Source: a virus (Duplodnaviria > Caudoviricetes). Taken from it: a stretch of DNA of 58,832 nt. Made by a program: the position numbers and the translations under genes. Where the stretch lies: positions 1 to 58,832 of IMG/VR virus record IMGVR_UViG_3300037606_000073. One strand, written 5' to 3'. Numbering within the stretch: position 1 is the first letter of the stretch; every line of letters starts with the position of its first letter. Positions 11,495 through 40,656 of the stretch are shown here, one piece after another. The notes beneath the pieces are model-generated. The model saw nothing but the letters and a program-made list of their open reading frames with translations. It was not told where the DNA came from and did not search any database.

Positions 11495-11500
11495 GGTAAG

Positions 11501-11534
11501 AAAAAAACCCCCACTGGGGGAGAACCAGCGGGGG
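11501..11534 (-). terminator. Rho-independent terminator
   Basis: CCCCCGCTGG-TTCTCCC-CCAGTGGGGG followed by T7. Confidence 0.85.
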
Positions 11535-11585
11535 AGTAGTTCAGGCAAGCAGTGTCCAACAGGGAGGAATTGGACAGTAGTGACT
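11501..11585 (-). ncRNA. Candidate ~85-nt sRNA with two anti-SD hairpin loops
   Basis: Own promoter at 11591..11619. Hairpin UGUCCAAU-UCCUCCCU-GUUGGACA, then a terminator hairpin with loop UUCUCCC and U7. Confidence 0.55.
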
Positions 11586-14600: not shown

Positions 14601-14606
14601 CCACCG

Positions 14607-14640
14607 ACCCGTCTAGCGAAAGCTAGGCGGGTTTTCTTTT
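14607..14640 (+). terminator. Rho-independent terminator
   Basis: ACCCGTCTAGC-GAAA-GCTAGGCGGGT followed by TTTCTTTT. Confidence 0.85.
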
Positions 14641-15707: not shown

Positions 15708-15980
15708 ATGAACTATACAATCGAGATCGACGAGTACAGCCTTGAGGCAACCGCCGACGTGCTGCGTATTATCAACCCCGGTAAGTCCAGTGCTGCCCAT
15801 ATCAGGGCCAGGGTCAACGCTAATATGCGGGATGGTTCCACGTCCCTTAGTACTGCTGGCTGGGAAGCTGCTGGTTTCTTCCCTGACCATAAGCCCGGTG
15901 TAATGGTAGTCCGCTTTGCTGTCGCTGCCTACACAGTACAGTGCTGGCTTGATAACAACCCCACCAAGGAGATCAACTAA
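15708..15980 (+). CDS. Hypothetical protein (90 aa)
   Basis: AAGGA RBS; TAATG coupling to the next gene. Confidence 0.7.
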   Translation: MNYTIEIDEYSLEATADVLRIINPGKSSAAHIRARVNANMRDGSTSLSTAGWEAAGFFPDHKPGVMVVRFAVAAYTVQCWLDNNPTKEIN

Positions 15981-16777
15981 TGTACGGAAGTAACGTCCAA
16001 TTACCCAGCAACCGTATGCTGTCCTACAACACAGCACTGCTCAAGTACAACTCCATCAAGCCTATCCGTGGTCGGTCAGACCAGAACACAAGGCCACTGG
16101 CCCATCGTGGCAACGACAACCTGACCATCCGGATGGAGCCAACGACCAGTGACATACTGGTCCGGCTCTACTCCACGGATATTGTCCGCTATGTCCACCA
16201 GCAGGGTGGTGACCCCGACCTAAGTCCCATCATCTTGGACCCTTATGCTTCTGTCCTGACCAACAGTGTCATGCGGTCCATCCTTGGGCCACATGTTAAT
16301 ACCTACTGGTCGAATAGTGGCCTCATCACCGAAGTGGGTGGTCGGTACTATAACACCCCGTCCTTCGTCACGGTCCAGCCAGCAGAGACCGGTTGGACGC
16401 TTGTCGATGGTTCCAAGCCCATCGAGGTGCCGGCTTTCAACCGTAAAGAGGGCAAGCAGGCCCTCAAGGACAGCAACTACTACATGTTCAAGCTATGGTT
16501 GGATACACGTATTCGTCTCAACTTGAGTCCACTTGGCCCCCGTTGGTACACTCGCAGTCCGTTTTGGACACCTAGTGAGGCTATGGCCTACCTCCGCCAA
16601 GGTGAGACTGGTTGGGCTGAGATCGCTGGTCGTACGAGAAACCGTGAACCACTGGAGGCTGAGCTGCGGTTACTGCGTGAGGCTGTCTACAAGCACGGTA
16701 TGTGCTACGACACTGAGTCGTATGAGTACTTTGGCAGCCACACCAAGCTACAAGCCGCCATGCGTAGGGTCAGATAG
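15980..16777 (+). CDS. Hypothetical phage protein (265 aa)
   Basis: AAGGAG RBS; long ORF within the operon. Confidence 0.75.
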   Translation: MYGSNVQLPSNRMLSYNTALLKYNSIKPIRGRSDQNTRPLAHRGNDNLTIRMEPTTSDILVRLYSTDIVRYVHQQGGDPDLSPIILDPYASVLTNSVMRSILGPHVNTYWSNSGLITEVGGRYYNTPSFVTVQPAETGWTLVDGSKPIEVPAFNRKEGKQALKDSNYYMFKLWLDTRIRLNLSPLGPRWYTRSPFWTPSEAMAYLRQGETGWAEIAGRTRNREPLEAELRLLREAVYKHGMCYDTESYEYFGSHTKLQAAMRRVR

Positions 16778-16786
16778 TTTGGGTGA

Positions 16787-16850
16787 TGTCGAAACGCCCT
16801 ACGGGGCGTCTGACATGGGTGGCTCCCATGTCACTGATGAGACAAGCCAT
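16787..16850 (+). ncRNA. Type II hammerhead ribozyme with loop-I/3'-tail pseudoknot; predicted cleavage after C16810
   Basis: UGUC-GAA-ACGCCC(UACG)GGGCGU-C^-UGACAUGGG(UGGCU)CCCAUGUCA-CUGAUGA-GACA-AGCCA. Complete catalytic core, all three stems, and the UGGCU loop is complementary to AGCCA. Confidence 0.93.
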
Positions 16851-16866
16851 ATAATAGGAAAAAGAT

Positions 16867-17856
16867 ATGCGTGCTACATTACTGAAAGAAACACTCAAGT
16901 CGCTGGTCACGATTGGCCGGTCCACAGCTATCGAGGGGCCCCCGGGCGGGGGTAAGACCACCATCGTCCACGAGGTGGCCGAGGCTATGGGGCTGCCTGT
17001 CATGGAGCGGCACATGCCCACCATGCTGGTCGAGGACTTTGGGATACCGTATCCCACTGACGCTGGGTTCGAGTACAAGCTGCCCGATTGGTTCCCCCTC
17101 AAGGGCAAGGCTGGCACTGAGCGTGGTGGTATCCTGCTGTTTGACGACCGGAACCAAGCCAACGCTGATCTACAAAAGGTACTGGCCAACATCCAGCAAG
17201 CTCGGACCCTACATGGCAAGCCCTTGGCCGATGGGTGGACGGTGGTGTCAACTGGTAACAGGCAGTCCGACAGGGCTGGTGCCAACAGGGTTCTGTCACA
17301 CCTTCGTAACCGTGAGACCGTGCTGGAGTTCGAGACACACCTCGACGATAGCACCCAGTGGATGATCGACCACGACGTACACCCCATGGTCATTGCCTTC
17401 ACGCGGTTCCGACCCCACTTGCTGCATGACTTCGACCCACAGCGTGACGTCAACCCAACACCACGGTCATGGGTCGAGGGTGTCAGTGCAGTACTGGGCA
17501 ACGTGCCATCCGAGGCAGAGTACGAGTGCTTCAAGGGTGCCATTGGTGAGGGTGCCGCAGCTGAGTTTGTTGGGTTTGTGCGTATCTACCGTAAGCTGCC
17601 CAACCCCGATGCTATTCTCATCAACCCCGATACGGCAGAGGTACCGACTGACCCGGCCACACTCTACGCCTTGTCCGGTGCCTTGGCTGACCGTGCCACC
17701 GAGGCCAACTTGGAACGTGTTGTGACGTACACCAGCCGTATGCCAGCCGAGTTCTCGGTCCTCAGCATCTCCCATGCTGTCCGTAAGACACCCGATCTGG
17801 CCAACACGGCAGCCTTTACCAAGTGGGCAGTGAGCCACCAAGATGTCCTCTTTTAA
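16867..17856 (+). CDS. MoxR-like AAA+ ATPase
   Basis: Walker A GPPGGGKT, Walker B ILLFDD, TGNRQSDRAGA sensor region, PTPRSW motif. Confidence 0.9.
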   Translation: MRATLLKETLKSLVTIGRSTAIEGPPGGGKTTIVHEVAEAMGLPVMERHMPTMLVEDFGIPYPTDAGFEYKLPDWFPLKGKAGTERGGILLFDDRNQANADLQKVLANIQQARTLHGKPLADGWTVVSTGNRQSDRAGANRVLSHLRNRETVLEFETHLDDSTQWMIDHDVHPMVIAFTRFRPHLLHDFDPQRDVNPTPRSWVEGVSAVLGNVPSEAEYECFKGAIGEGAAAEFVGFVRIYRKLPNPDAILINPDTAEVPTDPATLYALSGALADRATEANLERVVTYTSRMPAEFSVLSISHAVRKTPDLANTAAFTKWAVSHQDVLF

Positions 17857-18097
17857 GCCCAAGAGGCCGACGTTTGTCCACTGGTTGCGTACCAGTGGAC
17901 AGATCGCTGACGCGGAACTCGACGGCCTCGCCGAGGAGTGGGTCAAGTACCGCAAAGAAGCCCCAAAGAATATAAACTTCACCACTGGCCCCACCACGTG
18001 GGACCAGTTCGTTGCCAGCAAATACCCGCGTAAAGTGCTGACCTACCAAGCGTATCTCCGACTGATCGGGGCTGCGCCAACCTTCAACAAGGACTGA
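17843..18097 (+). CDS. Hypothetical protein (84 aa)
   Basis: Fills the operon gap between ATPase and next gene. Confidence 0.55.
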   Translation: MSSFKPKRPTFVHWLRTSGQIADAELDGLAEEWVKYRKEAPKNINFTTGPTTWDQFVASKYPRKVLTYQAYLRLIGAAPTFNKD

Positions 18098-18101
18098 CAA
18101 C

Positions 18102-18965
18102 ATGAAACTCAACGACCGAGCAATCCTCGTACAACTCAGCATCTCCACATGGTCAGCCAACAAGCTGGACAAGGAGATCAGCACCGAGACAACCCGTGCC
18201 AAGGGCGCGATGTCCGGTTCGATCCGTAGTCACAAGAGCCTGCTGCCCATGTGTGACCTGCTGAACGACATCAAGTCCAAGGCCAGCCTTATCCGCAGCA
18301 AGTTCTACGAGAACACCCTACCTTGGGGTGTGAAGGGTATCCAAATCCTGCCGACTGCCAACTACCTCACCTTTATGACCGAGTTCCGCAAGGAACGCAG
18401 CGAGTATGAGTACCTTGTGCAGCAGTTTGCACCTGCCTACCCTCAGATGGTGCTCGACGCCAAGTACCTACTTGGGTCCAGCTACAAGGCCGAGGACTAC
18501 CCCGACGTCAGCGAGATCGCCGACAAGTTCAAGATGGATATGCAGATCATGCCTGTCCCCAACGACGACTTCCGGGTCAACATCGCCGACGAGGAACTGG
18601 GCCGCATACAGCAAGAGGTCCAAGCCCGTGTCAAACAGGCCGGGCAGCAGGCTATGCGAGACATATGGCAGCGGCTTTATGACAAGGTTACTCACATGGC
18701 AGACCGACTGTCCAAGCTGGACGACCCCAAGGCCCGCTTCCATGAGAGCACTCTGGAGCATGTGACTGACCTGTGTGAGTTACTGCCACGGCTCAACGTA
18801 ATGGACGACCCCAACCTTGAGGCCATGCGCCAAGAGGTCGAGGGCAAGCTGGCTGGACTGAGCAAGGACAGCGTGGTGTTAAGCACCACGTTCCGGCAGA
18901 CCAAGATCAACGAGGCCAACGATATCGCTGCCAAGATGGCCGCCTTCATGGGGGGACTGAAGTGA
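18102..18965 (+). CDS. DUF3150-like coiled-coil protein associated with the AAA/VWA module
   Basis: ILVQLSISTWSANKLD...TLPW...NVMDDPNLE motifs; located between MoxR and VWA genes. Confidence 0.65.
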   Translation: MKLNDRAILVQLSISTWSANKLDKEISTETTRAKGAMSGSIRSHKSLLPMCDLLNDIKSKASLIRSKFYENTLPWGVKGIQILPTANYLTFMTEFRKERSEYEYLVQQFAPAYPQMVLDAKYLLGSSYKAEDYPDVSEIADKFKMDMQIMPVPNDDFRVNIADEELGRIQQEVQARVKQAGQQAMRDIWQRLYDKVTHMADRLSKLDDPKARFHESTLEHVTDLCELLPRLNVMDDPNLEAMRQEVEGKLAGLSKDSVVLSTTFRQTKINEANDIAAKMAAFMGGLK

Positions 18966-19120
18966 CCAAATTCGACACAGAGTACGTCAAGGCCAGACTG
19001 AGGCAGGCAGTGGCCGCTGCCGGGCAGCCACACTACGGCTGCAATGTCACCGAGATCGACAACTTACACGAGGCCATAGACGTAGTGCGTGGACTCATTG
19101 AAGAACTGGAGAAAAACTGA
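18962..19120 (+). CDS. Small hypothetical protein (52 aa), absent from the ORF track
   Basis: GTGA and TGATG overlaps with neighbours; translates MTKFDTEYVKARLRQAV...EELEKN*. Confidence 0.6.
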   Translation: MTKFDTEYVKARLRQAVAAAGQPHYGCNVTEIDNLHEAIDVVRGLIEELEKN

Positions 19121-20238
19121 TGGACCTGATGAAACGACTGAGCAAGGCCAAGACCAGCCTGATCTTGGAACACCCCTTCATTGGAAGCGTGGCACTCAAC
19201 ATGCCCATGACGCTGAGCACCGATGTGCCCACCGCTGCGACCAACGGTAAACGTGTGCTGTACAACCCCGACTTCATCGAGCCACTGACTGACGATGAGC
19301 TCAAGTTCCTTGTGGCCCATGAGTGTCTTCACCCCATGCTGGAGCACAACTTCCGCCGTGGTTCTCGTGACCCCAAGAAGTGGAACAAGGCCGCCGACTA
19401 TGTCATCAACCAGCTACTTGTCGATGAGGGCATTGGCAGATTCATCGAGGGAGGCTGCCTAGACAAGAACATCTACACCAACGGCGGCGGTACAAGCGAC
19501 GGTATATACAACCTGTTACCAGACAGTGACGGTGATGGCGATGATGGCGACGACGATGGCCCCGGTGGACCCGGTAACGATCTGGAGGATGGGGGCGGTA
19601 GCCCAGCGGAGCAGGCTCAAGAGGCTGCCGAGTGGAAGATCAAGGTGGCCCAAGCGGCGCAGGCTGCCAAGATGATAGATAAACTGAGCGCCAACATGGC
19701 ACGGCTTGTTGACGAGGTACTCAGGCCCAAGGTTGACTGGCGCGACAGACTGCGGCAGTTCGTGCAGAAGGCCAAGACAGACCAGCGTACCTTTTCCAGA
19801 CCCAACCGTAGGTTCCTGTCCCAAGGGCTGTACATGCCGAGCATCACAGGCGAGGCGCTGGGTGAGATGGTGTTCGCCGTGGATATGTCAGGGTCTATTG
19901 GCCAAGACGAGGCCAACCAGTACGGCGCCGAGTGCCGCGTGGTGTACGAGGATGGCCGACCGCTCAAGCTGCATCTTGTGTTCTTCAGTCACGAGGTATG
20001 TGCTCACGATGCTATCGGTCGTGACGACGAGTTCGTGTTCAATCCCCGCGGTGGTGGTGGTACAGCGTTCAGCCCTGTGTTCAAGTACATCGAGGAGCAA
20101 GGCATCGAGCCTGCTGGCATCGTGTTCCTCACTGACCTGTACTGCCATGACTTTGGCGACGCACCTGCCTGCCCTGTGCTTTGGGTGACGACAGGCGCGA
20201 CAAGCGCGCCGTTCGGCGAAGTAGTGGGGATGGTATGA
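19120..20238 (+). CDS. DUF2201-like metallopeptidase-VWA domain protein
   Basis: HECLH (HEXXH), acidic Gly linker, MIDAS DMSGS, GGGGTAF and FLTD motifs. Confidence 0.85.
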   Translation: MDLMKRLSKAKTSLILEHPFIGSVALNMPMTLSTDVPTAATNGKRVLYNPDFIEPLTDDELKFLVAHECLHPMLEHNFRRGSRDPKKWNKAADYVINQLLVDEGIGRFIEGGCLDKNIYTNGGGTSDGIYNLLPDSDGDGDDGDDDGPGGPGNDLEDGGGSPAEQAQEAAEWKIKVAQAAQAAKMIDKLSANMARLVDEVLRPKVDWRDRLRQFVQKAKTDQRTFSRPNRRFLSQGLYMPSITGEALGEMVFAVDMSGSIGQDEANQYGAECRVVYEDGRPLKLHLVFFSHEVCAHDAIGRDDEFVFNPRGGGGTAFSPVFKYIEEQGIEPAGIVFLTDLYCHDFGDAPACPVLWVTTGATSAPFGEVVGMV

Positions 20239-33063: not shown

Positions 33064-33073
33064 TCACTCTGCA
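33047..33073. terminator. Hairpin at the junction of the convergent arms
   Basis: TGCAGAGTGACT-TAT-AGTCACTCTGCA, a perfect 12-bp stem spanning both stop codons. Confidence 0.55.
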
Positions 33074-36000
33074 ATGTAGGCATCCACGATCTTCTGCGCC
33101 GCACTCCTTGAGGATAGCGGCGTGGTCTTCAGGAACCGCTCACTGGCACCTAGACGCTGCGATCTCAAGGCGCTGCGGACGCGGGACCTAAGGTTGACAA
33201 CCTCCAGCCCTGTCCCCTCGGCGGACTCATTCCACTCTCGGGCCTCTGCATATAGCGCCTGCACCTTGGCGTTATCGCCAGCCACTGTGGCGGCTACGAT
33301 GCGGTCGCGGTAGTACACAGACATAGACTTCTGGTACTCGGTGATGAGCTTGGCCTCACGGACAGCTCCGTACATTGCAGATGTTGCGCTCGGCTGGAGA
33401 CCAAGTATCCGCCCCAGACCTATGGCTGCATTGTAGTCTTCAGATACTACATACCCGCGTTTGTCCACGATGGCTCCGTGCTTCTCGAAGGCGAACGCGT
33501 CCGATACGGCACGCACGAACGCGACCGGCGACTCCCGCAGTGTTGACTCAAGGGAGAAGGCTTTCCCCCCGGGCAGGATGTTGGCCACATTACCTATGGT
33601 CCCTATCATCTGTTGTATCCACGACGCCATCGGTCCGCCAATCGAGATAAGCTCGCGTGACACATCTGCTCCAGCGAGGCCAATACCCGTACCCGGTAGG
33701 ATATTACCATTGGAGAAACGCACGCCAGCGTCGTACGGAATGAGCCGGTTGAGCCCACCGCTCACAATTATCTCCCCCAAGCCGGGGAGCAGCTCGTCCC
33801 CTGTACGGCGGATAGAGTCACGGATGCTGGGCATGGGTATACCAAACTTCTGCGCGAGGGTGTTGACGAGGTCCTCGATGTCTTCGGCGTAGGGCACACC
33901 ACGCAAACCGCTGAGCAGTAGCAGTGACCCTAGCAGCAGCACCTGCCCAGAGCGCGGCAGATTGGCGATGAGTGCCGCAGTGTTTACCGTAAACATCTGG
34001 AACATAAACGCAAACTGTAGCGGGCCGCCGCGGAACAGCGCTGGCCTGTCTATGGCGGTGTACCCCCCAAGCGTAGTCAGAACCATCTGAGTGGAGAACG
34101 CGGAGGCAGCCTCAGCGGCTTCTGCTCGTGACTTACCGGCGGCTAGGTGCCGCTGGAACATAAGCTCGAAACTTGCCAGCGCCGTGGTTCTACGCCCAAC
34201 TTGTTCTGTCCAGTTGAACGGGGCCATGTACACCATCAGGAACTTCTGTGCGCCACCGGATGTGATACGCCCACGCGCCGAGCCCATAAGAGAGTTGGTC
34301 TGGGCAGCTTGGAGGATGCCACTGTCAATACCGAGGGCTACGAAGTCTCGCGCCTCAGCCGAGATACCCATCTCTTGCAGCTGCGCGGGGGTGAGGTCTT
34401 GCCAATACTTAGCTGTGTCCTTCTGCCCACCCAGTCCAGCGGCCACCTTCGTCGCCCGAACCATTGCAGCATACGCGGCGTACACCCCAAAGCCCCCGCC
34501 AAACCCCGTCTCGTGGTTCATTGTGGCCAGTGCTGCGGGCGAGTTGACAAATCCACTCACGACGTTGAGCGCACCCGACGCCATCATAAAGCCGAGGTAG
34601 CTCACAGAGGTCAGCATCTGCACCATCGCGATGTGCTTGTTGTTTGCTAGGTCTGTCTCTAGCACACCCTTCTGCTGGTCGCGGAACGCCACCATCGACC
34701 GGGCCTCTGCGTAGAACTTGTTCCCGTTCGCGGGCGCATTTTCAGTGACATACCACCGGTGGTACTGCTCGAACTTCTGGCGGGCCACGCTGATCGCGTC
34801 GTCGTTCGGGTTAGGCGCAGCTTTGAGTCGTTCGTACTCAGCCTTGAGCGTGTCGTACCTTTTCTTGCTGCCCGTCCACAGCTCCGCGGATTCACCCCTG
34901 ATATCGAGCAGGGTCTCAAGTTCCACACTTGTATTGTTCCGGGCGATGGTGGCTGCGCGCGACTCGATGTGTGCTGAGATCGCACTGGTCAAGTCGTTGG
35001 GTGCACCGGGTGTGAAGCCAGTCTTCAGCTGCCGCAGGATCGCACGGTTACCACTAGTGGTCGAGGCTTTAACAATGTCCTCCAGTTTCTGTGGCGTCAG
35101 AGGGATGTTAAAGCGCCGGATGAACCGCAGCGCGGCGTCGTGGCTGATCTCCGGGTCTGTAGTGGGTGCGTCAAGGGTGACCGAGCTTACCCCTGACAGA
35201 TTGCCCTTCTTCATCACGAGCTTGCCACGACCGTTAGCAGCCTCTGGGTCCCACACTTCTACAGTAAACTCTTTATCACCAAACAAGGTTGTGAGTTCCT
35301 TGGCCGCGCGATCAGCATCCGTCCGGCTTTCGTACTGCATGTACGGGGCCTGCTCGCGATAGCTCTCGCCGAGCACGTACCCTTTTCCGTCTGCCCCGGT
35401 GAACACCATGTTTGCTTGGAACTTACCCTCGCGCACGATAGGGACGTAGCCTGTCTGGATCGTGCGGACAGCAGCCTTCTCAGCGTCGTGGCTTGTAGTG
35501 AGCTGCCCAGCGATGAGTCCTACTTCGCGTTGGACCACGCGCCGTTTTTCTAGGCTTTCGACAGCGTTAGGGTCTGCCGCTGGTGGATTGTAGCGGGTGA
35601 GGAACCCGTCGATCATGTCGGTAAGTTCTTTCCGCTCGCTCTCGGGTAACGCTACGATGTCGTTGTTGTCCGCGTTTGGAGCAAACAACCCGTAGATACG
35701 GTCACGGCCAGTGCCCAGCAGGGCGGCGTTAAACTGAACGAGGAACTTTTCAGCCGCGGCTGTGTCGCGGGTCGAGGGGTCGATTTGCCCGCCCTCAAAG
35801 AGGGTCAGGTTTGCGTCTTGTATCTCCACGTACCGGCGGACAACACGGTCCAGCAGCGCGCGGTCACCATCTGTCATGGCGGCGTCCAGCGCCTTCGCCA
35901 CTCGGCGGTAAGAGTTTAATCTCTCTTGGTCGTGTTTGGTGAGGATACTCTCCAGCAGCTCGACTGCGGTTGTGCCCATCGAGTCCAGCTCTTGGTTGAA

Positions 36001-39000
36001 CGCGCCCCACTCAAGGTCCGTGAACTCCTGCTTCACATCGAGGTATGCCACCCCTGTGTATGTGTTGTTCTCGATACGTGCCTTGTAGTTCCGTGTGATG
36101 CGGTTCTTTGCACGGTCCGTCGTGGCTGCTGCAACAGCAGCGTCGCGCTCAGCCGCAAGCTCGGCGCGCTTCGCGTCAGTCATCTCGATATCTGTGTCGT
36201 AAGGCACACGCACACCTGCGGCCCACTGCCCGCGCGACAGTCTGTTCCCTTCGAGGAGTTTCGTGAGCGTACCATCCTGAAGCTGCAGCTCGCCCGTCGC
36301 AGGGTTGCGCAAGAACAGCTTGGGTAGGTTGCGCATGGATGGCATCTTGTAGGCATGCGAGTGGTACATGCGGTTGGCTTTGAGTACGTACCCTGCCTTG
36401 GCGCGTCCGCCCACGCTGATCCCGCTACCGCCCATACCAACCGTGGCGAGCCTTTCTGCCCGTGGGTTAAGGGCGATGTCACGCATTGTCTGCATACGTG
36501 TGACCAGAGAGCGCGCAATGTTGGTTGTGCGCGTCATATTATCGAATACTTTTTGGAACCCTTCGTTGCGCATACCACGGAAGACAGCCGGAGTAACTGT
36601 GTTACGCTTGAGTGAGTCCCACTTATCGGCGAGGTCCTTGGGCGAGAAACCCAGTACCTCTACGGCGCGCGTGACCTTGTCCAGTGCATCTTGGATAGAG
36701 GACGGCATGACCCGCCCCGGGTCGTCCACCGTGTGGCCTATTGAGCGGATAGTAACGTGCTCGGCTGCAGTGCTGAAGCGGCCCACCCCAGTGGGGTCCG
36801 TGCCTGCGTCGAGCTGGTGCATAGTATTAGCGATTAGGTCAGTGTTGAACACAGAGCCTTTCTCCCCAGTGCGCAGGTACCTGCCGCTCTGGTTCATAAG
36901 GTAGCGCGCGGCATCGTCGTCGAACTTGAAGCCGATATTGTTCAGCGCGTCTTTGGCTTTGGCCCACCACCGACGCAGGATACTCATCTCCACGCGCGCG
37001 GCGAAGTCCGAGAGGTATTCTTCAACAGCTTCTGCGCGGGGGATACCACGTGCCGCGACCATATCGTCGACGGCGATCTTCATGTAGGGCACGCTGTCGG
37101 TGTAGAAGGACTCCATGAGCGTGTTGAACTCGGATGTACCGAGCACGGACCGCATACCAAAGTGGCCCAGCACCTCGTGGGCGACGACGAACTCCAGCTG
37201 CTGGCGCGTAGCGACACGGTCGCTGAAGATGATGACTTGGTTGTCGAAGAAGTACCCCACCGCCGGTGCGGTATCGAAGTCGCCTTGGCCACGGGCCGCA
37301 GCCGCGCGCTTGTAGAGCGCAGGGTTCCGCTGCTTCAGGTCAGCCTGACTTGCGAACACAGACAGCTCGGGCTTTACCTTAAACTTGTTGAGTATATTTC
37401 GGGCGATCATACGCTGCTTGCCGATGGCCAGCGGAACTGCACGACTGCCATTACCAAGAACAACGTCGGCCAGCGACGCGAGCGAGAACGCACCGCCGGG
37501 GTTTGTGTTGGGCGTGGTGTGGGCGATCTGCCCCATCTTTTTGTTTGGCGAATTGTTTACCGTAGCGTACCCGAGGACGTCTGCCTTAGGGTCGCTGTTA
37601 CGCACACGCGTGGCCAGTGCCCTAAACCGCGCTTCGAACGCCGACACGCTGTTGTCGGGCACAGAACCGGAGTTGAACATGGTTACCATGGCCTGTATTT
37701 CTTTGGTCGCGAAGTCCACGCCAGCCGGGTCACCCCCGAGGCTCCTATGGTTGTTCGCACGCGCGACATACGCGGCGAGTTCTTTGTACTGAGTGCTGGA
37801 CAGATTAAGCTCAAGCGCATCCAACGCGGCCGCTGCCACCGATGGGTCAGAGTTCTGGCTAAGCACGGTCAGCTCTGCGCCTGCGTCAAGCTCCGCCTGC
37901 GTGAGCAGGGTACGCTTCTTGCGCGCGTCGTTGAGGATTACATCCTCGGCGAGCTCCACAGCTTCCATCGCTACCGACTGGTCGAACTCTGCGTCTGTCG
38001 GCTCCGCGGGGAGCTTGACTTTCTCTGGCTTCGCGGGCTTCGCCGGGGGCGGCGCTACTTCAGATTCCCGAACAGGCGATTGTTCTTGGGGGGTGTTTTC
38101 TTGGGCGGTTTCTTGGGTAGCCTCTCCGGCAGTGGTTTGCCCTTGGGTGTCTCCGCTTCGAACTTCTCCGCCAGCTGTGGGTTTTTTGCGTAGAGGGTCC
38201 GTCTTTGGCTTTGGCTTTTGAACGGCATCAGGTTTTCCTCTCTTTAGGGTGGGCTTAGGAACCGGTGGCGTAGGTGGGGTTTTCACGCGCAGCGCCCAGC
38301 CCCCCGCGACTTCCATAGGTTCGAGGTCCTTCGGGGTTACAGCTTGGTCAGTCTCTTGGGTGATCTGCTCTGCCACGCGCTTGCGGTTGGCCGGTGCGTT
38401 GGCCTGCGCCTTGTTTTGGAAAGGTGCGCCCTCTGCTGTACCATAGGTGTTGGCAGGTAGCGGCGGGCGCACGCGCTCCATCCGTTGCCCCAGCGCACGC
38501 AGGGCCGCGGCCTGCCCTTGCAGGTCCCGCTGCGCAGCCTCAGTCGCACGGGCCGTAGTCACTTGCTGCTGCATGGCGTTGAGGTCGGCTTCGCGCGTGG
38601 CGGTTACACCGGTGGCTACCAGTGGCTCTGCCTTGCGGACTGTACGTTTCACGAGCCGCGCGAACAGGGCGGCGTCTGCCTCACCCGCACGCTCCGCCAT
38701 GGCCCACTCACGCTGGGCCTTCTTGTTCAGACGTGGCAGCAACGGGAGTGTGTCCGGGTTGGACCGACCAGCGCGTATCTCCGCCCAGCTGCCGTAGGCT
38801 GCGTCGTATTCCCGAGGGGTAATCGCACCAGTGGGGGTGGGCTCCACTACGGTGTCGGTGGGTGCTTCGACCGGCGGTGCTACCACAGGGGCTGGCGTCT
38901 GCGCCGGCTGCGCCGGCTGCTGTCTTTGCTGCAGCTGCATAAGTTGCTGCTGCAACTGGTTTGGTGCAGTCACTAGGGGTGCTGCCGTTGTGACCGCCGG

Positions 39001-40656
39001 AGTCGGCGGGCCTTGTCGCGTAGCAGCAATATCGAAGCCCTCAGCTACAGTACCTTCAAGTCCTAGACTTTGCGAAGTTGCAGGCGCAGGTGCCACGGGC
39101 GCAACAGGCGCAGGTGCCACGGGCGCAGCAGGCGCAGGTGCCACGGGCGCAGCAGGCGCAGCAGGCGGCGCGGGGGGTGTAATAATATCTGGGGCGGCGG
39201 CTGCACTACGGTCAGGCGCAGGGAGTGCAGCAGGCGGAGCTGGTAGTCCAAGCGTAGGAGGAGGAGCAGCAGCGGCTTCAGGCGCCGGTAACCTAAGCGT
39301 GGCCTCAGGCGCCGGTAGCCCAAGCGGGGAAGGAGCAGCGTCCACTGGCGGCGGCTCTTGCCGCCCCTGTAATATATCAGTTGGTTTGCCTGCACGTAGG
39401 TTTACCACACCACCGATACCACCGCCGACGACTGCACCGGCTACACCGGCTTCGATAAGGCGCGACAGGTATTCGTCGGTGTAATCCCCACCGAACTGCT
39501 GGCCGCCAGCCATGACAAGCGCTTCTTGTCCGGCCTCGGTTACACCTTCCAACCCTGCGCCGATTGCGGCGCCAGTGCCTGCGCGGCGGAGCAAACCACC
39601 GGCAGCATTTGAAAAGCCGAACAGCCGGCCCGCAGCGATAGCTTCCGGGATCGTGGACAGCACAGCGTAGGGGACACCAATGGCAGCGGATATCGCGCGA
39701 GCGTCCATGTCCTCTGGCCCCGCGCCTTGCCGGCGGGTCTCACTGTATACGTCCGAGACGCCCATGGCGTAGTTGTTGACCGCCGTCGCAGCGGCTGCAC
39801 CGCCGATGCGGGCCAGCAGTTTCTTCTGCTCGGTCGAGGCTGCGCCCCGCGCGTAGGCTTCTGCGGCTTCTCTGGCTGCGCCTTTGATAGCGCTTTTTGA
39901 CAGCAGCGCACCGAAACTACCGACGGCTGCGCCGATAGGATTACCAGACGCAACACCACCAGCGGCTGCGCCGACGAGCGCGGTACCAATACTCTCGAGG
40001 ATGTTCGGGCCCTGCTGACCAAGCACAGACACAGCGTACTCAATCGCGCCTAGCTCGCCAGAGGCAACCTCTGCGGCCGATACTTGGAAGGGCGACAGGC
40101 GCTGGAGTTCTTCGCTGGCACGGTTGACGACGCCCGCACCTGTCTCCTCTGCCCCAAGGAACTGCAAGCCTGCGCCGCCGAGGGTCTTCAGGTTCTGCAC
40201 CCCGATGTCGAAGCTACGCCCGAAGCGTGTGCCCAACTTGGGGTTTTCGATACTCGCCAAGTACTGTTCAAACATACCGGTGCCTATCCGGGTCCACGTC
40301 CCCCCCGCGGGTGGCTGCGCAGGCTCTGCGTCCAAGCGCGCCCGGGACTGCACGGCAGAATTGTAATCCTCCGCGTCGAAAGCGTACCCGTTTACAGAGA
40401 ACAGGTTGCGAGCTTGGTCAAAGTAGACCGCGGGCCCGGTCGGCGCCTGCGGGGCGCGCATCGTAGTGTAGTCAGGCGCGGGCAGGTTTACTACCTGATC
40501 GAAAGCAACCTGTACATCTGCCATGGTCGCGCCCAGCGCGCCTAGCCCACTGGCTCGGGACGGGTCTCGTAGCGCGACACCGAAGGCATCTTGGGGGCCA
40601 AGCTCCATAGCCGCTGCGCGCGACTCTGGCACCATCAATCCAGCACGTTCTACCAT
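33064..40656 (-). CDS. Giant internal virion/ejection protein (large polyvalent-type, 2530 aa)
   Basis: Last gene of the late arm; Gly/Ala membrane-like region, Pro/Ala linker, AHEVLGH zincin-like motif, helical C-terminus. Confidence 0.8.
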   Translation of the reverse strand: MVERAGLMVPESRAAAMELGPQDAFGVALRDPSRASGLGALGATMADVQVAFDQVVNLPAPDYTTMRAPQAPTGPAVYFDQARNLFSVNGYAFDAEDYNSAVQSRARLDAEPAQPPAGGTWTRIGTGMFEQYLASIENPKLGTRFGRSFDIGVQNLKTLGGAGLQFLGAEETGAGVVNRASEELQRLSPFQVSAAEVASGELGAIEYAVSVLGQQGPNILESIGTALVGAAAGGVASGNPIGAAVGSFGALLSKSAIKGAAREAAEAYARGAASTEQKKLLARIGGAAAATAVNNYAMGVSDVYSETRRQGAGPEDMDARAISAAIGVPYAVLSTIPEAIAAGRLFGFSNAAGGLLRRAGTGAAIGAGLEGVTEAGQEALVMAGGQQFGGDYTDEYLSRLIEAGVAGAVVGGGIGGVVNLRAGKPTDILQGRQEPPPVDAAPSPLGLPAPEATLRLPAPEAAAAPPPTLGLPAPPAALPAPDRSAAAAPDIITPPAPPAAPAAPVAPAPAAPVAPAPVAPVAPAPATSQSLGLEGTVAEGFDIAATRQGPPTPAVTTAAPLVTAPNQLQQQLMQLQQRQQPAQPAQTPAPVVAPPVEAPTDTVVEPTPTGAITPREYDAAYGSWAEIRAGRSNPDTLPLLPRLNKKAQREWAMAERAGEADAALFARLVKRTVRKAEPLVATGVTATREADLNAMQQQVTTARATEAAQRDLQGQAAALRALGQRMERVRPPLPANTYGTAEGAPFQNKAQANAPANRKRVAEQITQETDQAVTPKDLEPMEVAGGWALRVKTPPTPPVPKPTLKRGKPDAVQKPKPKTDPLRKKPTAGGEVRSGDTQGQTTAGEATQETAQENTPQEQSPVRESEVAPPPAKPAKPEKVKLPAEPTDAEFDQSVAMEAVELAEDVILNDARKKRTLLTQAELDAGAELTVLSQNSDPSVAAAALDALELNLSSTQYKELAAYVARANNHRSLGGDPAGVDFATKEIQAMVTMFNSGSVPDNSVSAFEARFRALATRVRNSDPKADVLGYATVNNSPNKKMGQIAHTTPNTNPGGAFSLASLADVVLGNGSRAVPLAIGKQRMIARNILNKFKVKPELSVFASQADLKQRNPALYKRAAAARGQGDFDTAPAVGYFFDNQVIIFSDRVATRQQLEFVVAHEVLGHFGMRSVLGTSEFNTLMESFYTDSVPYMKIAVDDMVAARGIPRAEAVEEYLSDFAARVEMSILRRWWAKAKDALNNIGFKFDDDAARYLMNQSGRYLRTGEKGSVFNTDLIANTMHQLDAGTDPTGVGRFSTAAEHVTIRSIGHTVDDPGRVMPSSIQDALDKVTRAVEVLGFSPKDLADKWDSLKRNTVTPAVFRGMRNEGFQKVFDNMTRTTNIARSLVTRMQTMRDIALNPRAERLATVGMGGSGISVGGRAKAGYVLKANRMYHSHAYKMPSMRNLPKLFLRNPATGELQLQDGTLTKLLEGNRLSRGQWAAGVRVPYDTDIEMTDAKRAELAAERDAAVAAATTDRAKNRITRNYKARIENNTYTGVAYLDVKQEFTDLEWGAFNQELDSMGTTAVELLESILTKHDQERLNSYRRVAKALDAAMTDGDRALLDRVVRRYVEIQDANLTLFEGGQIDPSTRDTAAAEKFLVQFNAALLGTGRDRIYGLFAPNADNNDIVALPESERKELTDMIDGFLTRYNPPAADPNAVESLEKRRVVQREVGLIAGQLTTSHDAEKAAVRTIQTGYVPIVREGKFQANMVFTGADGKGYVLGESYREQAPYMQYESRTDADRAAKELTTLFGDKEFTVEVWDPEAANGRGKLVMKKGNLSGVSSVTLDAPTTDPEISHDAALRFIRRFNIPLTPQKLEDIVKASTTSGNRAILRQLKTGFTPGAPNDLTSAISAHIESRAATIARNNTSVELETLLDIRGESAELWTGSKKRYDTLKAEYERLKAAPNPNDDAISVARQKFEQYHRWYVTENAPANGNKFYAEARSMVAFRDQQKGVLETDLANNKHIAMVQMLTSVSYLGFMMASGALNVVSGFVNSPAALATMNHETGFGGGFGVYAAYAAMVRATKVAAGLGGQKDTAKYWQDLTPAQLQEMGISAEARDFVALGIDSGILQAAQTNSLMGSARGRITSGGAQKFLMVYMAPFNWTEQVGRRTTALASFELMFQRHLAAGKSRAEAAEAASAFSTQMVLTTLGGYTAIDRPALFRGGPLQFAFMFQMFTVNTAALIANLPRSGQVLLLGSLLLLSGLRGVPYAEDIEDLVNTLAQKFGIPMPSIRDSIRRTGDELLPGLGEIIVSGGLNRLIPYDAGVRFSNGNILPGTGIGLAGADVSRELISIGGPMASWIQQMIGTIGNVANILPGGKAFSLESTLRESPVAFVRAVSDAFAFEKHGAIVDKRGYVVSEDYNAAIGLGRILGLQPSATSAMYGAVREAKLITEYQKSMSVYYRDRIVAATVAGDNAKVQALYAEAREWNESAEGTGLEVVNLRSRVRSALRSQRLGASERFLKTTPLSSRSAAQKIVDAYIAE
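39081..39161. repeat. 24-bp tandem repeat x3 encoding a Pro/Ala linker
   Basis: CAGGCGCAGGTGCCACGGGCGCA(A/G) units. Confidence 0.85.

Follow-up and report, generated by a model that had tools for sequence, protein, structure and literature searches.

Type II hammerhead ribozymes, as described in the available portions of Perreault et al. 2011 (PMC3088659), rely on a pseudoknot between loop I and the 3' tail for fast cleavage. The same work reported multiple hammerheads that flank prophage genes and cut polycistronic RNAs both in vitro and in E. coli, and found that the addition of one pair to a construct with a 1-bp stem II reduced activity. Processing of polycistronic RNA by bacterial hammerheads has likewise been proposed in a review, whose accessible text does not define the role (PMC6765202). 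In Desulfovibrio vulgaris, three type II hammerheads were seen to cleave in vivo by cyPhyRNA-seq, and the available part of that report indicates that such hammerhead predictions are usually active in cells (PMC8782182). The original prediction for the DNA analyzed here had called the roles of phage hammerheads largely unknown, in agreement with the unsettled picture in the accessible text of PMC3088659 and PMC6765202.

Here, we analyzed a candidate of this type in a virus record of 58,832 bases (hereafter the window, i.e., the whole stretch of DNA under analysis), rated 100% complete and with 58.5% G+C. PHROG matches to terminase, portal/adaptor, internal virion protein, transglycosylase, and tail fibres lie on the - strand, and matches to DNA polymerase, helicase, and primase on the + strand. 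From these matches, the + strand block at ~13.2–33 kb, which includes the ribozyme, is a module of the replication type. The elements at the locus are as follows:

15980..16777, + strand: upstream cistron of 265 aa, named fam0 here, which the ribozyme tracks in relatives
16787..16790, + strand: 5' strand of stem II, UGUC, pairing with GACA at 16841-44
16791..16794, + strand: core GAAA (G12 A13 A14 A15.1), invariant in 26/26 aligned copies
16794..16809, + strand: stem III hairpin ACGCCC-UACG-GGGCGU, with strands at 16794-99 and 16804-09
16808..16810, + strand: cleavage triplet GUC, placed by the Rfam alignment, with predicted scission after C16810
16811..16833, + strand: stem I hairpin of 9 bp (16811-19 / 16825-33) with loop UGGCU at 16820-24
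16834..16840, + strand: core CUGAUGA, found as CUGAYGA in 26/26 aligned copies
16841..16844, + strand: 3' strand of stem II, GACA, partner of UGUC at 16787-90
16845..16849, + strand: pseudoknot strand AGCCA, complementary to loop I UGGCU at 16820-24
16856..16859, + strand: Shine-Dalgarno-like AGGA, read from the sequence, 7 nt before the ATG
16867..17856, + strand: AAA+ ATPase gene (AAA_5/MoxR-like), the downstream cistron (Pfam AAA_5, E 5.6e-6; PHROG 1297 'ATPase', E 9.4e-68)

The hammerhead lies in sense orientation and fills an intercistronic gap of 89 nt within the + strand gene block, between the upstream ORF stop at 16777 and the ATG at 16867. The fam0 stop codon lies 9 nt before stem II, the ATG follows 26 nt past the core, and U16811, at which the downstream RNA is predicted to begin after cleavage, precedes the ATG by 56 nt. 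A direct reading of positions 16600–17050 showed that all element coordinates of the original prediction were correct, as were the sense position in a gap between two genes (here of the replication-module block), the gap length, the hairpin that would begin the downstream mRNA 56 nt before the ATG were cleavage to occur, and the location of the pseudoknot strand just upstream of the ribosome-binding site, 6 nt away. The variable position of CUGAYGA is presumably N7 of the hammerhead consensus, and the cleavage triplet is GUC in 25/26 aligned copies and GUA in 1/26.

We next consider the family assignment. The Rfam model RF02276 (Hammerhead_II) matched 16787-16852 on the + strand with 41.9 bits (E 3.3e-5), above its gathering cut-off of 37 bits and across model positions 1-66 of 66, as the original prediction had anticipated. 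Across the whole 58,832-base window, Hammerhead_II was the only Rfam family to exceed its own cut-off, and no other ribozyme was found at E ≤ 1. The RF02276 core elements are all present (CUGANGA, GAAA, and a triplet NUH), and both the Rfam alignment and the minimum free energy (MFE) fold show the type II topology, in which the molecule ends in stem II while stems I and III are loop-capped. The core pattern (CGAAAC..GTC..CTGATGAG) has a single match in the window and none in any of 100 dinucleotide shuffles. The MFE structure of 16780–16870 is a three-way junction of -32.8 kcal/mol (z -3.2), and equally good folding was reached in 1/200 shuffles. Elsewhere in the window, sub-cut-off Rfam matches were obtained at 11500-11578 on the - strand (anti-hemB, 26.6 vs 49.5 bits; NsiR1, 26 vs 39), where 164 nt separate the portal-like gene from the terminase gene; a hairpin or terminator is the probable cause.

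Compared to the described family (RF02276; available text of PMC3088659), the element has the same core in the same permuted topology, with stem II open and stems I and III capped, and a UGG.../...CCA pseudoknot that likewise follows stem II directly. The only difference from the RF02276 consensus is in stem II, which has 3–4 bp here and 2 bp there, the two inserted positions costing score. In view of the reduced activity of the lengthened construct in PMC3088659, this speaks somewhat against cleavage; however, the longer stem II is constant across the present subfamily. The ardA triple arrangement of Agrobacterium tumefaciens, as given in the accessible portion of PMC3088659, is also similar in that sense ribozymes bracket genes or short blocks in polycistronic units of phage origin. 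Relatives of the window carry 2–3 copies that bracket fam0 and its neighbours much like the ardA arrangement, while the window itself has one copy, and the flanked gene here, unlike ardA, is without known family or fold. The D. vulgaris ribozymes are of the same type and, in the available part of PMC8782182, lie near hypothetical and phage-like genes; those loci are chromosomal and in a cultured bacterium, whereas the present one belongs to an uncultured virus record known from sequence alone. Overall, the ribozyme is a well-supported but ordinary member of a family known since 2011, for which several copies bracketing phage genes had already been described. The longer arrays and the precise packing of stop codon, ribozyme, and Shine-Dalgarno sequence described below are refinements, and the supplements of PMC3088659 may already list similar arrays.

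Next, we evaluated conservation of the element among relatives. A scan of viral contigs with the AAA+ ATPase yielded 141 relatives, of which the best 80 were kept (68–93% identity, matching over residues 1–329 or nearly so). When whole records of two sets of 40 relatives were searched, Rfam Hammerhead_II was detected at E ≤ 0.01 in 21/40 and 6/40, with 14 and 3 of these above the cut-off. A covariance model built from 26 aligned copies and applied to the window and the 80 loci gave 38 matches, i.e., 1 in the window and 37 in 25/80 loci. All 38 lie on the gene strand, and 37/37 in the relatives lie upstream of the AAA+ gene. Among 29 distinct copies, standard pairing was observed in 94.5% of cells, while only 31–44% of cells paired when the partners were slid by 1–3 columns. 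Changes on both sides were found for 19/24 pairs, and the resulting covariation score was reached by 0/500 shuffles; this 29-copy alignment was fitted to the model, and an independent MAFFT alignment gave the same picture.

These patterns extended to every helix. Stem I was paired in 97.6% of cells with both-side changes in 9/9 pairs, and stem III in 99.4% of cells with both-side changes in 4/6 pairs. In stem II, both-side changes affected 3/4 pairs, and the inner three pairs were each retained in 29/29 distinct relatives, the outer one in 13/29. The pseudoknot was paired in 89.9% of cells with both-side changes in 3/5 pairs, including the compensatory variants UGGUU/AACCA and UGACC/GGUCA. The Rfam match and this covariation together bear out the proposed type II hammerhead with a pseudoknot between loop I and the 3' tail. 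Since covariation is strong and compensatory and orientation is strictly sense, we reasoned that selection acts on the RNA, and these alignments identify the element as a genuine RNA structure under selection.

The same data bear on whether the element might be a hammerhead-like relic without cleavage, or a chance promoter (ATGTCA-16 nt-TATAAT, 16828-16855), which we consider extremely unlikely. Cleavage activity is a prediction, which leaves room for a relic, and of 24 listed sequencing runs that contain the stretch, none is on record as RNA. The promoter-like site, with 10/12 matches, overlaps the 3' half of the ribozyme. However, all core positions are intact, and the copy of the closest relative among the best 80 of 141 (L020) differs at three positions that preserve the structure, i.e., two stem pairs that went from A-U to G-U and one change at the terminal pseudoknot pair; a decayed relic is unlikely given this intact core and these structure-preserving substitutions. 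As for the promoter, the scan gave 4 sites in the region against 5.5 expected, and a start ~7 nt past TATAAT would omit the ribosome-binding site. The TATAAT is retained only in L020 among the aligned copies, and the promoter reading of 16828-16855 was rejected as a match at chance expectation with this limited conservation.

To identify the gene with which the ribozyme is associated, we compared its position across the same 80 relatives (best 80 of 141). The original prediction had linked it to the genes downstream, as a "ribozyme-gated AAA+/VWA module" that relatives should share. In the window, the AAA+ gene is followed by an 84-aa ORF, then by a DUF3150-like gene and a DUF2201 metallopeptidase-VWA gene (Pfam E 5e-49 for the latter protein). 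The DUF3150-like label is tentative, since its 18.5 bits fall short of the Pfam cut-off of 24.9. A hammerhead was found 7–49 nt before the AAA+ start in 12/80 relatives (L002-L005, L010, L014-L016, L018, L020, L078, and L080), and 189–203 nt upstream of the AAA+ gene in 3 further loci. In 30/80 loci, the preceding ORF abuts or overlaps the AAA+ start (-11 to +4 nt), and a ribozyme would not fit in between. An ORF that abuts or overlaps the next start is the usual sign of translational coupling. Additional Rfam searches at gathering thresholds in 19 of the 80 loci, picked for long gaps before the AAA+ gene, returned only Hammerhead_II at the junction (3 matches) and no other ribozyme class.

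By contrast, the ribozyme follows fam0 closely. This gene is present in 17/80 loci, and 16/17 have an adjacent hammerhead, L019 being the only exception. The hammerhead lies just 5' of fam0 in 12 loci, directly 3' in 8, and 141–152 nt 3' in 2 more; fam0 is bracketed on both sides in L002-4, L010, L014, and L018, while in L008/9 a hammerhead pair brackets fam0 together with a 78-aa ORF. Where the hammerhead directly precedes the ATPase gene (12 loci), the upstream gene is fam0 in 10 and belongs to another family in 2. The distance between fam0 and the AAA+ gene varies between relatives, and further copies flank other small gene families. This flanking pattern of fam0 and other families suggests that the ribozymes mark junctions of a variable gene region that ends at the ATPase block.

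Specific gating of the AAA+/DUF3150/peptidase-VWA module thus appears unlikely. It would accommodate the window and the 12 relatives with a hammerhead just before the AAA+ start, among them the distant L078 and L080 (68–69% identity), as well as the ribosome-binding site only 6 nt past the pseudoknot strand. However, 68/80 relatives are without a hammerhead at the AAA+ junction and the 30 loci with an abutting or overlapping ORF could not host one, so that the expected synteny largely failed; fam0 is upstream in 10/12 of the positive loci, and the link of the ribozyme may therefore be to fam0 instead; and the same subfamily precedes many unrelated genes. No cleavage-dependent change near the ribosome-binding site was seen in the predicted folds, with AGGA single-stranded in the MFE structures of precursor and 3' product alike, although the ensembles are diffuse (MFE frequencies of 0.007–0.06) and say little on this point. 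The gating claim was thus not upheld, and the ribozyme instead follows variable upstream genes and adjoins unrelated ones.

The fam0 protein itself matched no Pfam or PHROG family. Its AlphaFold model is confident (pLDDT 88.3), yet no fold match was found in the PDB with Foldseek (best E 0.11), and a VIA-align comparison to 48,161 chains gave a best Z of 4.1 and no assignment. Between L020 and the window, amino acid identity is 75% for fam0 and 94% for the AAA+ ATPase, while synonymous-site identity is 0.84 and 0.80, respectively; as judged from these sequences, the fam0 protein evolves much faster than the ATPase at similar synonymous divergence.

A variable gene next to a repeated element could also indicate that the ~70-nt hammerhead DNA acts mainly as a shared boundary for recombinational exchange of cassettes between phages, with RNA cleavage secondary. 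Single variable genes bracketed by hammerheads would fit such exchange, as would the differing distances of fam0 from the AAA+ gene among relatives and the stem III or stem I modules shared by copies within a genome (e.g., in L008 and L014). Exchange at the ribozyme would nonetheless be hard to reconcile with four-fold degenerate third-position identity, which is similar in fam0 and the AAA+ gene across 9 window-relative pairs (0.84 vs 0.80 for L020, 0.52 vs 0.52 for L018, and 0.48 vs 0.46 for L010), and no recombination breakpoint was visible at the ribozyme from the synonymous sites of these 9 pairs (of 17 fam0 loci). Compensatory covariation and strict sense orientation again point to selection at the level of RNA, and we consider this boundary role very unlikely.

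We also searched for cultured relatives. A DNA search of 15900–19200 against cultured phages gave no match. By DNA polymerase, the nearest cultured phages are Rhizobium phage RHph_TM3_14A and Pseudomonas phage KPP25 (38–39% identity), from which host inference is weak. The gene order of RHph_TM3_14A resembles that of the window, and no hammerhead was found in this phage with Rfam (whole record) or with the covariance model (37.9 kb); it does not provide a cultured model of the ribozyme. The window also includes a 2530-aa ORF at 33064-40656 on the - strand, with one weak PHROG match in its C-terminal part (E 9e-15) to a family of unknown function; a giant - strand gene occupies the matching place in RHph_TM3_14A.

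Taken together, 16787-16852 is likely to be a functional type II hammerhead of a common phage subfamily, which probably serves as general intercistronic punctuation and is not specific to the AAA+ gene. Based on the observed sequence, fold, covariation, orientation, and distribution, we propose a mechanism in which cleavage and its effects on stability and expression are the predicted steps. The ribozyme would be transcribed within a polycistronic RNA, assuming co-transcription of both flanking genes. No terminator-like element was found between fam0 and the ATPase gene. The RNA would adopt the three-way junction, held in place by pairing of loop I with the 3' tail in the pseudoknot, and would cleave itself after C16810, parting fam0 from the AAA+ ATPase/DUF3150-like/metallopeptidase-VWA block. 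The fam0 RNA would then have the stem III hairpin at its 3' terminus, bearing a 2',3'-cyclic phosphate ~33 nt past the stop codon, while the ATPase RNA would open with the 9-bp stem I hairpin, a 5'-OH at its base, and keep its ribosome-binding site free. Consistent with this, the stem I hairpin persists in the fold of the 3' product, and AGGA, which begins 6 nt past the pseudoknot strand, is unpaired in the MFE folds. The ATPase RNA would retain both loop I and the strand that pairs with it in the pseudoknot.

The likely effect would be to uncouple the fates of neighbouring cistrons, i.e., their stability and stoichiometry, with the ribozyme as a general "punctuation mark" of a variable early-gene region. 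Cleavage-type RNA ends alter decay in a direction that depends on the host. RNA with a 5'-OH end evades 5'-monophosphate-dependent entry of RNase E, while in Bacillus, RNase J1 targets 5'-OH ends, as for the glmS ribozyme product. Any effect of the 5'-OH on stability would thus depend on the RNases of the host. In this phage lineage, the ribozymes sit at the borders between variable accessory genes in the region leading up to the conserved AAA+/VWA block, in an architecture with the upstream stop at the 5' edge of the ribozyme and the next ribosome-binding site just past the pseudoknot. Further upstream, a strong terminator-like hairpin (12-bp stem, T-rich tail) was observed at 14606-14633 on the + strand, ~0.7 kb ahead of the first clear + strand ORFs; it may be where a preceding transcription unit terminates and the operon carrying the ribozyme has its start region.

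Finally, we examined how widely this architecture is distributed. The exact subfamily pattern was found in at least 120 viral contig stretches, and the covariance model, applied to 80 of these, detected 124 copies and as many as 7 at a single locus. The densest stretch, L159:2923-5805, contains seven type II hammerheads on one strand within 2.9 kb, and 6/7 copies have an ORF of 74–201 aa starting within ~10 nt downstream, so that it looks punctuated gene by gene. Four hammerhead copies each were found in L111 and L152.

We then scored the flanks of 129 unique contexts (from the window, L002-L081, and L082-L161), 110 of which had enough flanking sequence. The distance of the upstream stop from the first base of stem II is -3 to +10 nt in 86/110 contexts (vs 2/110 in an antisense control), the downstream ORF starts within 35 nt in 90/110 (vs 18), and both features occur together in 72/110 (vs 2). 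The window conforms to this stop-ribozyme-start pattern. Such tight spacing to the flanking genes could reflect plain genome compaction.

An alternative view of this spacing is that type II hammerheads punctuate phage early operons gene by gene, with their activity tied to translation, an extension that we regard as rather doubtful. Since the upstream stop abuts or overlaps stem II in these 86/110 contexts, a terminating ribosome would cover the 5' part of the ribozyme, i.e., the stem II 5' strand, GAAA, and part of stem III. Folding and cutting by the ribozyme would then have to wait until the terminating ribosome has left the upstream cistron, and each cut would release a monocistronic RNA with hairpins at both ends. 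RtcB-type ligases join 5'-OH and 2',3'-cyclic phosphate ends, and a gene between two copies would, if this were true, yield an RNA with exactly such ends. More generally, the genomic context provided by this follow-up eases testing of what bacterial and phage hammerheads are for.

Among cultured phages, blastn of the 83-nt element matched 39 records, 34 of them Streptomyces phages. No ribozyme paper on hammerheads in Streptomyces phages, and none from 2018 onwards on phage hammerhead arrays, was found in open PMC and bioRxiv searches by title and abstract. On phage hammerheads and polycistronic RNA, the relevant papers in these sources were PMC3088659 and PMC6765202. Seven Hammerhead_II matches above the Rfam cut-off were detected within ~6 kb in each of Streptomyces phages Puginator (PP978857.1 45480-51543, L203) and Alvy (NC_054669.1 47025-53011, L204). 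These matches score 38.8–60.4 bits and all lie on the gene strand, among small genes. Arrays of up to 7 copies, in these phages as in the other contigs, go beyond the ardA triple. The architecture seen in the window's lineage recurs in these arrays of seven in cultured Streptomyces phages, in which infection experiments are feasible. In Puginator, 7/7 copies are located between annotated genes. In Alvy, some copies overlap with tiny ORFs that are annotated as "hypothetical protein" (24 aa for gene 84, for example), and these short ORFs may be mis-annotated ribozymes.
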